A DNA stretch of 63,936 bases, counting the filler, from an uncultured Ignavibacteriales bacterium (lineage in GTDB: Bacteria > Zixibacteria > MSB-5A5 > GN15 > JAAZOE01), in the NCBI GenBank assembly GCA_964611355.1. It is 3 parts of 3 records of this genome, joined end to end, with 100 filler letters (N's around TTAATTAATTAA, not from the genome) between each part and the next. Parts side by side here need not be neighbours in the genome. Positions count along the whole stretch, not along the records: positions 1 to 30,763 come from CAZSYD010000028.1; 2 more parts are not named here. One strand, written 5' to 3'. Within the stretch, counting starts at the first letter, position 1. Every line of letters starts with the position of its first letter. Position numbers: made by a program. This document shows positions 1 to 3,000 of the stretch, one piece after another.

Positions 1-3000
1 TCCAATAACCATCCCTGGAGGAGATCGCCCTTGAAGACGGTGATAAGAAAACGGATCTATAATGAAATGACAAAATAGGACATTTCTATCTTGCCAAGAA
101 TAGGACATTTCTATCTTGCCTTGACATTGGCTCTTGTTTTGCCTTGACAACCCTGCACAGTATTGGTTTATTTGAAAATCCTTGAAAGAAAGGCAAAATT
201 TGTCCTCTGAAGTCGAAAAAACACAACAGGTCACGTCCGATCTTTTCAAAAAATGCCATGAATTTACGACCGCCAAAGAGGTGATGGCGGCCGGATACTA
301 CCCCTATTTTCGTCCGATTTCGTCAGCCCTGGGCGATGAGGTAATCGTCAACAACAAAGAAATGATCATGATCGGCTCCAATAACTACCTCGGTCTGGTC
401 GGCCATCCCAAAGTAAAACAAGCGGCGGCCCAGGCAGCTCTTAAATACGGATCAGGGTGCACCGGTTCCCGTCTTCTCAACGGCACGCTCGATTTGCACG
501 TAGAGCTGGAAGAACGGCTGGCGCGATTTATGAAACGGGAAGCGGCCCTGGTATTTTCCACCGGTTTCCTGACCAACCTGGGAACGATATCCTGCCTTGT
601 CGGTAAGGATGACGTTATCATGATAGATCGCAGCGATCATGCCTCGATTGTCGAGGGCTGTCGTCTTTCTTACGGCAAGATTTTCAAATATGCTCATAAC
701 GACATGGATGACCTTGAGCGGCTTCTGGAACACGCGGTCTATAATGGTATTCGGGGCGGGATTTTGATTATCACCGACGGCGTTTTTTCAATGGAAGGCG
801 ATATTGTCAATCTCCCCCGAATGTGCGAGATTGCCAACAGGTATGGCGCCCGTGTTATGGTTGACGACGCTCATTCGGTTGGCGTCCTGGGTGAAGGCGG
901 CCGCGGAACGGCTGAACATTTCGGCCTGATCGACCGGGTTGATATCACCATGGGAACCTTTTCAAAGTCGTTTGCTTCGCTGGGAGGATTTATCGCGGCC
1001 GACGCCGCCGTTATACATTACGTCAAACATCTTGCGAGGGCATTAATCTTCTCGGCCTCGATTCCTCCGTCTGCCGCCGCCGCCGTTATGGCCGCTCTCG
1101 ATGTAATTGAAACCGAACCGGAAAGACGGGCAAATCTTTGGAAAAATACCCGCAAAATGCACAAGGGATTGCGGGATTTGGGCTACGATATCGGGACCAC
1201 GCAGACACCGATTGTACCGATTATGATTGGCGACGATACGACCTGCTTCAAGCTATGGAAGGATTTGAGCGATGAGGGGATTTTTACCAACGCCGCAATC
1301 CCCCCGGCCGTGCCTCCGGGTATGTCGCTCATTAGAACCAGTTACACCGCTACTCATACGGACAAGCAACTTGATCGCGTCCTGGATACTTTTGCCCGGC
1401 TCGGCAAAAAATACGACATAACCTGACCTTGGATATTATAACCGCCAAAGAGAATATCGAACTGCTGGAGGTTGAAAACTCCTCCGACCTTAACCGGTTT
1501 ATCAAATTACCGTTTTCTATTTACAAGGATGATCCCAACTGGGTCCCGCCGTTGATTTCGGAACGCAAAGAGTTTTTCGACAAAATCAAAAACCCTTTCT
1601 TTCGGGCCGCCAAAACCAGGTTGTTTCTGGCGCGAAAAAACGGAGAATATGTCGGGCGGGTTGCGACCTGCATCAATTATAATCACAACGAATACCATCA
1701 GGAAAAGACCGGGTTTTTTGGATTTTTCGACGTTATCGAGGATTACGAGGTAGCCAGGGTTCTTTTCAAGGTTGCTTTGATTACTCTCAAAGCCGAAGGA
1801 ATGGAACAGATGATCGGCCCGGCCAGTTTTTCGACCAACCACGAGGTCGGCATGCTGATCGAAGGTTACAACTTTCCTCCGGCCGTAATGATGACCTATA
1901 ATAAGCCGTATTACAATGACTTTGCCGAAAAGTTCGGTCTCCGCAAGGCCAGGGACCTTCTGGCTTTCCGAATCTTTCAAAATACCGAAATGGATCCGCG
2001 ACTGATCCGAATATCGGAAAGGATAAAGGCTAAAGAAGGAATCGGCCTCCGTACGCTGAATATGAAAGATTATGACGCCGAAGTGGAACTAATCAATGAA
2101 ATCTACAACAAAGCCTGGTCGAAAAACTGGGGTTTTGTCCCTATGTCAAAAGAGGAGTTCCGGTACACGGCCCGCGACATGAAGCAGATCGTCGATCCCG
2201 ATATGGTTCTTATCGCCGAGGTTCGGGGCAAACCGGTCGGTTTTTGTTTATCGCTGCCCAATATCAATCAGGCGTTAAAATACACCAATGGCCGCCTGTT
2301 TCCCACCGGGCTCATAAAACTTCTCTGGCATACCAAAATCAAAAACAAAGTCGACTCCGTTCGCATTATCACCCTGGGCATTATTCAGGAATACCAGAAG
2401 CGGGGCATCGATACTTTATTTTACCTCGAAACATTCAGGGTCGGTCCAACCAGGGGTTACAACTGGGGCGAGATGAGCTGGATTCTTGAAGATAATTTCG
2501 CCATGGTGCGCGCCGCCGAACTGATGGGCACGAAAGTATATAAACGTTATCGCATGTATGGAATGCGGGTGTAGCTATGATAAAAAAGATTTTTATCCTG
2601 ATACCGGTTCTGACTCTGACCGTATTTCTTCTTCTCTCGTGCAAGAGGACATACTTCCATCTGACCGAAGAAGTACATGACAATGTCGCGATGCGCTTTA
2701 CTACCGGGACGTCATATTTTGAACCCGGCAGGTCGATAGTTTTGACCGGCGGGAAGTATCGGATAGAATGGGGCGACAGTATTGTCCTGTTCGTTGAGGG
2801 TAAGGCGAAATTCACCGGCGTGGGGGAAGAAGGTATAGGCACTCTCGATTTCACCGAAACCGCCCGTTTTTATATTACTTTACAGCCGTCGCTGAAAGCA
2901 GGCCGTTACAATACCCGTTATAAAGCGATCTGCGAGATTATAAACAGCTTCACATACGGCGAGGGCGAAAACCTGTTCACCTGCCAGTCGGGCGAGGTGG

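Follow-up and report, generated by a model that had tools for sequence, protein, structure and literature searches.

The window analyzed here, the whole 63,936-nucleotide stretch of DNA, joins three contigs of a Zixibacteria genome. Two genes predicted to act in ceramide synthesis lie near the start of contig C28 (window 1–30763): spt and bcerS share a strand and are separated by 2 nt, and a third open reading frame, ORF3, follows just as closely (Table 1). The earlier note described a two-gene operon. The pair itself stands, but ORF3 probably belongs to the same transcript, and in most families a reductase gene is head-to-head with spt.

Table 1. Features at the start of contig C28, in window coordinates
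Feature	Position	Strand	Basis
spt, predicted serine palmitoyltransferase (PLP α-oxoamine synthase)	200..1426	+	NF047600 is the best family; PDB 8guh, E 4.6e-129; residues kept
bcerS, predicted bacterial ceramide synthase (tandem-GNAT N-acyltransferase)	1429..2574	+	YghO homology; AF2 tandem GNAT fold
ORF3, predicted lipoprotein with β-barrel, probably co-transcribed	2577..3113	+	begins 2 nt past the bcerS stop
Repeat end at contig start, probably insertion-sequence end	1..129		matches other contig ends

The longest spt reading frame begins with TTG at 182. A second in-frame TTG, at 200, has a Shine-Dalgarno-like sequence (GAAAGG) 6 nt to its 5' side. Further upstream, the repeat recurs at the ends of contigs C89, C36, and C82, and carries both a 22-bp direct repeat and a terminal TTGACA. 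It is probably the end of an insertion sequence, about 55–70 bp upstream of spt, and it hides what originally lay upstream of that gene. A TTGACA-17-TTTATT arrangement at 144–172 was noticed by eye; the promoter scan did not call that site, and was itself uninformative (three sites, versus 4.4 expected by chance).

The rest of the window holds other gene groups. An XRE helix-turn-helix/IrrE-type peptidase fusion overlaps a PemK/MazF-family gene (4621–6232), forming a toxin-antitoxin-like or mobile-element pair. On the same contig as spt, 21 kb downstream, is a pgsA-pgpA-cinA-thpR-recA run (24142–28159); several relatives in the family instead carry a divergent pgsA-cinA-recA run just upstream of spt. 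The stretches 12283–16179 and 61617–63572 encode three DUF3857 proteins; one of these has a transglutaminase-like domain. A polysaccharide-type cluster (35132–44946) includes asparagine-synthase-like, heparinase II/III-like, two NAD-synthase-like, hexapeptide transferase, and GDSL genes.

The family that scores highest with the window Spt is SerpalmtaseCFB (NF047600), at 547.8 (548 in the earlier note) against a curated cut-off of 640. This shortfall is not evidence against the assignment: among 101 Bacteroidota genomes, 75 match at E≤1e-130, of which only two exceed 640 and 72 score below the window protein, so the cut-off marks a narrow subfamily. The best PDB match is Sphingobacterium multivorum SPT; Kbl-like structures follow at about 1e-85. 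Aligned to the S. multivorum enzyme and numbered from position 182, the window Spt retains N67, H153, D228, H231, K262 (in GTFSKS), A292, and R385. Thus Asn52, His138, Asp210, His213, Lys244 (GTFSKS), and Arg367 of the S. multivorum protein are all conserved; the numbering of Arg367 is consistent with this alignment. Four pocket positions differ (S53>N, A79>T, F83>L, and M271>I). The sites mapped are those named in the available text of PMC10196870.

Paralogous oxoamine synthases show different patterns. In a table of 41 sequences, the window Spt and 19 other Zixibacteria Spts all carry the Spt signature (GSR, TFSKS, FSA); Kbl proteins carry SVRF, GKA, and FSN, BioF-type proteins GKA and YTT, and SulA-type proteins GAR, FAKS, and Lys. 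The last of these is a described marker: Lys281 in SulA corresponds to Ala in Spt (PMC9304779, in the part available), and A292 of the window protein occupies this position. A quick tree of the same 41 rows (SH-aLRT support only) separates Spts from Kbl and BioF-type rows (95) but leaves SulA-type paralogs inside the same 33-row group, so the substrate call rests on residues rather than topology. The genome's other oxoamine synthase is a separate Kbl, above its own cut-off (563/460).

The bcerS product was compared through E. coli YghO, used as a proxy for Caulobacter CC_1154, whose ortholog yghO is named in the accessible portion of PMC9386255. The two proteins are 39% identical over 97% cover (E 6e-77). 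The AF2 model (pLDDT 91) adopts a tandem GNAT fold, and the domain search returns a weak GNAT match. Sequence searches found no PDB match and no NCBIfam family, homolog and atlas names are simply GNAT or hypothetical, and the families searched include no curated bCerS or CerR model. YghO and a Roseomonas CerS homolog both sit in full clusters (acyl-ligase, epimerase, ACP, and spt); for each, the sole match in this genome is the window bcerS, and the clusters' best matches here are this very pair. The window protein, a putative N-acyltransferase, is homologous to the CC_1154/YghO family over its full length; across the loci surveyed, bcerS is linked to spt and cerR.

The third enzyme of the pathway, CerR, is likely encoded elsewhere, by an extended-SDR reductase gene at C43:9540–10535. 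The cluster-encoded epimerases (CerR) of E. coli and Roseomonas match this gene best (E 1.8e-29 and 1.1e-36), ahead of an NDUFA9-like gene on contig C50 (1e-15 and 5e-16). Reductases encoded after bcerS in Chitinophaga, Taibaiella, and Rufibacter also match the C43 gene first. The C43-type reductase is found once each in 115 of 121 good genomes. For 13 of 19 families, loci show it head-to-head with spt; this arrangement is absent from f1, f2, f4, f9, and f16, and in f3 the two genes are on different contigs. Best match and spt linkage together identify the C43 gene as the likely CerR. The earlier note had named an NDUFA9/CerR-like gene, g01856, which by a rough estimate from gene numbering is probably the C50 gene. 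This is the weaker candidate and was rejected: it is second best, and co-distributes poorly with spt (45/121 genomes at E≤1e-40).

One family departs from this pattern. In f9, spt-bcerS is intact (locus L222), and neither a C43-type reductase (E≤1e-35) nor the class V PLP gene described below was found in any of four genomes; three of the four have the NDUFA9-like gene. A different reductase may serve in f9, or the product may stay oxidized. Separately, in locus L220 (6544–7513), from a single-contig genome, the reductase is in two pieces, and spt has no bcerS downstream within the locus.

The reductase gene heads a compact group on the minus strand (C43:7051–10535; L160:3052–6536), with ends that overlap or nearly touch: the CerR-like reductase, a 142-aa membrane protein, a class V PLP enzyme, and an EamA transporter. 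The PLP enzyme (388 aa) is SufS-like and lacks the SufS catalytic-Cys motif. Of 121 genomes, 105 carry its gene: 93 of them have it immediately after the reductase unit, nine have it unlinked (f6 and f16), and in three it is at a contig break. Family f8 lacks the PLP gene only. Across 80 metagenome loci, linkage between PLP and reductase genes is confined to close homologs and never seen in distant ones. Among 72 homologs of the small membrane protein, all named ones are from Zixibacteria. The common layout places this unit (class V PLP enzyme, small membrane protein, cerR) head-to-head with spt-bcerS. In the taxonomic order of this genome, the cerR unit has been relocated as a block, apart from spt-bcerS.

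Both genes of the window pair are near-universal in the phylum. Homologs of bcerS occur in 243 of 251 genomes and of spt (E≤1e-110) in 239; each is in 196 of the 198 high-quality genomes (about 99%), and most misses come from genomes less than 90% complete (6/8 for bcerS, 10/12 for spt). The earlier assertion that every Zixibacteria genome has the pair is therefore close, but strict universality is not established. The closest relatives are titled Zixiibacteriota. Adjacency of the two genes holds for 29 of the 30 closest loci and for 22 of 27 loci spread across families; the exceptions are two insertions of 1.9–2.3 kb, two loci without bcerS, and one contig edge.

This layout is not special to Zixibacteria. 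Of 80 loci, 32 were set aside. Those dropped from the outside count include L048 and L084, which behave as Zixibacteria although their titles name other phyla, and Ignavibacteria-titled or unnamed loci with Zixibacteria-level identity. (Titles and sequence affinity part elsewhere too; L111, titled Citrobacter, has a Bacteroidota-like locus.) Among the 48 outside loci kept, mostly from Bacteroidota, 35 have bcerS immediately after spt, and 40 have all three genes in one cluster. Both sets of loci contradict a statement in the available text of PMC11324152, which assigns cerS and spt "always" to separate operons.

Very probably, the window pair forms part of the usual bacterial route for making ceramide de novo, a route that Zixibacteria have passed on by vertical descent and that is core to the phylum. 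The case is built from genes, residues, synteny, and distribution, and the activities, step order, products, and location that follow are predictions from it. Spt would condense L-serine with a long acyl thioester to yield 3-ketosphinganine; the co-transcribed bCerS would N-acylate this intermediate; and the C43 reductase would then reduce the 3-keto group, generating dihydroceramide. Cluster proteins used as queries found no AcpR in the genome and only weak AasR matches, so the acyl donor is probably acyl-CoA or a housekeeping acyl-ACP. The ceramide would probably enter a membrane that also holds lipid A: homologs of lpxA, B, C, D, and K and of kdsB are present. The idea that ceramide replaces LPS was rejected on account of these genes. 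The phylum was earlier called a likely sphingolipid producer; the residue signature, the CerS ortholog, the third syntenic reductase, and the 251-genome survey all strengthen that prediction.

Counterparts are known from two directions. All three enzymes of Caulobacter (CC_1162, CC_1154, and CC_1164, for Spt, bCerS, and CerR) and E. coli (ECD_02854, yghO, and ECD_02852) have best-match counterparts here, including the tandem-GNAT acyltransferase and the extended-SDR reductase. Unlike in those systems, no AcpR and only weak AasR matches turned up in this genome, spt and bcerS are 2 nt apart, and no second LptF/G pair accompanies the genes in the loci examined. The clusters of Bacteroidota (Chitinophagales, Saprospiraceae, and Cytophagales) are similar in sequence, with Spt about 50–56% and bCerS about 41–48% identical, and GGGPS and DGGGPS-family UbiA genes (discussed below) occur in the same genomes. 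They differ in that the Zixibacteria reductase gene points away from spt or lies elsewhere, and behind it come a small membrane protein and a class V PLP enzyme that outside loci did not show; ORF3 after bcerS is likewise restricted to the window's order. In Bacteroidota loci L073, L076, and L100, the ceramide genes run on into a conserved block of more genes, with products of about 440, 153, 125, and 860 aa.

Might the pair make something other than a serine-derived ceramide? A ceramide analogue, either 1-deoxyceramide from alanine or a sulfonolipid from cysteate, is improbable. Its attraction lies in the Thr or Ser at the Ala79 position, equated with human SPTLC1 Cys133, a residue close to the side chain of the substrate (PMC10196870, available part); in the abundance of 1-deoxy and sulfono ceramides in anoxic water (PMC11334938, available part); and in the PLP gene, C-S-lyase-like, that travels with cerR. 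SulA/CFAT, the cysteate acyltransferase of sulfonolipid synthesis, does share the fold family and nests with Spts in the quick tree. But the window Spt has Ala292 where SulA has Lys281 and lacks the GAR/FAKS pattern, its PDB match to CFAT is far weaker (3e-83 versus 5e-129), and a Bacteriovoracaceae Spt has the same Thr. Much less probable still is that the PLP enzyme is of Kbl or BioF type, the GNAT protein an unrelated acyltransferase, and their pairing a matter of synteny inertia. The sub-cut-off Spt score could be read this way, and the phylum does keep unrelated neighbors together for long, for example alaS, GGGPS, and a gmhA-like gene. Against this, the same three genes cluster in those 40 outside loci and in proteobacteria, the residues exclude the Kbl and BioF patterns, and Kbl is a separate gene. 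The serine ceramide pathway thus remains the preferred reading.

The genome also encodes archaeal-type ether-lipid enzymes, as the earlier note reported. GGGPS (group II) clears the TIGR01769 cut-off as claimed (203.3/161.55), matches PDB GGGPS structures at E 1e-54 to 1e-41, and is above cut-off in 206 of 251 phylum genomes. A DGGGPS-like UbiA protein was also confirmed: its best PDB match is 6m31 (E 1.4e-34), and its best families, NF009523 and NF009521, both score below their curated cut-offs (203/269 and 171/296). Full-length DGGGPS-like matches occur in 116 of 121 genomes (117 have a match at E≤1e-3, one of them only 1.8e-4). Three other UbiA genes were rejected as DGGGPS: a MenA in a men operon, one of decaprenyl-phosphate phosphoribosyltransferase type, and one weak match. 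A second, weakly DGGGPS-like UbiA gene (C61:6220–7131; L158) directly follows uppS and cdsA. The geranylgeranyl reductase (GGR) was likewise borne out, above the TIGR02032 cut-off and with 3oz2 as best PDB match; it is in 57 of 121 genomes. PlsX and PlsY are both present, as noted earlier, as are two polyprenyl synthases, CdsA, PgsA, and PgpA. That GGGPS and DGGGPS genes are not co-located also proved correct: they are never within 1.5 kb of each other (22 and 25 loci), and their neighbors are alaS/gmhA-like and MoxR-type genes. At C26:22199–27039 (L154) the order is alaS-like, GGGPS, SIS-domain gmhA-like, and O-antigen-ligase-like, and is kept in most of the 22 loci. CarS was not found in this genome, and 15 of 121 genomes have weak partial matches (≤28.8 bits). 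Searches for G1PDH (EgsA/AraM) in 121 genomes gave weak PF13685 matches only (≤45 bits), the best in this genome being an Fe-ADH. The PF01864 and PF13685 matches were rejected as CarS and G1PDH, respectively.

GGGPS, the DGGGPS-like protein, and GGR form an unlinked, FCB-wide set of genes, whose enzymes probably make geranylgeranylglyceryl ethers. A bolder reading is a true three-backbone membrane, with bulk archaeol-type diethers (made by GGGPS, DGGGPS, and GGR, with CdsA/PgsA acting for CarS) alongside ester glycerolipids and ceramides. The breadth of GGGPS and DGGGPS-like genes and the presence of two polyprenyl synthases, CdsA, PgsA, and PgpA suit it, and Cloacimonetes enzymes yielded PG-archaeol in E. 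coli (PMC7852524, available text). It is nevertheless unlikely: DGGGPS is under every curated cut-off, the GGGPS and DGGGPS genes are unlinked, neither CarS nor G1PDH is convincing, GGR is patchy (4 of 45 genomes in the largest family), and the function of bacterial GGGPS products is called unknown in the accessible part of PMC7888582.

These ether-lipid genes are already in print. Coleman 2019 (PMC6431249) names Zixibacteria with GGGPS and DGGGPS in Table 1 and the supplementary trees, so the absence from the literature that the earlier note implied fails for them. Ca. Cloacimonetes has the same set with GGR, lacking CarS and G1PDH, an FCB pattern described in the available text of Villanueva 2021 (PMC7852524); the Zixibacteria match this set, PlsXY included, but their GGGPS and DGGGPS genes are not co-located, and their enzymes are known here from genes, whereas the Cloacimonetes enzymes were tried in E. 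coli. Nor is the combination with Spt peculiar to Zixibacteria: it is also found in cultured Bacteroidota. By hand count, 22 of the 101 Bacteroidota genomes have both GGGPS above cut-off and an Spt-like match (not residue-checked), and Chitinophaga rupis has a ceramide cluster, GGGPS, and a DGGGPS-family UbiA above cut-off. The three-backbone gene set is thus real, though earlier work had described it for both this phylum and its superphylum, and the surprise earlier attached to it was overstated. Spt-like genes have been described in 38–40 phyla, including 33 Cloacimonadota MAGs (Ding 2024, PMC11334938, in the part available). The literature searched holds no report of ceramide in Zixibacteria: as the earlier note had it, the name is absent from the main text of PMC11334938, so far as available, and it is likewise absent from the other Ding main text and from the text and two supplements of PMC12619533; the Ding and Villanueva supplements may list the phylum. 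With the ceramide route known and the ether genes published, what the result adds is another group with a known pathway, not a new pathway.

Finally, the genes that accompany the pathway invite a further proposal. ORF3 is present in 20 of 31 Zixibacteria-titled loci (the window included) and in no other locus. Its lipobox (LLSC) ends in Cys22, which is invariant across 43 rows, and its model (pLDDT 90) is a β-barrel. Foldseek returned no match at E≤0.001; Z scores of 7–9, the best being 9.1 with no standout, link it to many small barrels, including lipid-binding YceI types. ORF3, the small membrane protein, and the class V PLP enzyme may serve in transport or tailoring, or they may be neighbors retained over a long time, as alaS is beside GGGPS. 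In the stronger form of the first option, the ceramide cluster would hold dedicated components absent from the literature consulted, in cells that have ester, isoprenoid-ether, and lipid A lipids too: the roughly 140-aa membrane protein after cerR would be an anchor or flippase for a ceramide intermediate, the PLP enzyme would alter the long-chain base or turn it over, and the ORF3 lipoprotein would carry ceramide across the envelope. In its favor, 93 of the 105 genomes that carry the PLP gene have it immediately after the cerR unit, the PLP gene has moved with that unit, and f9 lacks both; according to the accessible part of PMC11087976, no flippase or transporter had been identified. Yet the link is limited to close homologs and broken in f6, f8, and f16, and unrelated neighbors are also conserved in the phylum. 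This proposal is unlikely as it stands.

With about 40 phyla already listed, one more is a useful addition and not a surprise. What is gained is specific: the right CerR candidate; co-operonic spt-bcerS, contradicting the published "always separate" statement; and three linked genes that may act in ceramide transport or modification. Moreover, near-universal retention of spt, bcerS, and cerR suggests that ceramides are core to the Zixibacteria envelope, beside lipid A. If so, an entire anaerobic candidate phylum would be a plausible source of bacterial sphingolipids in anoxic waters and sediments.
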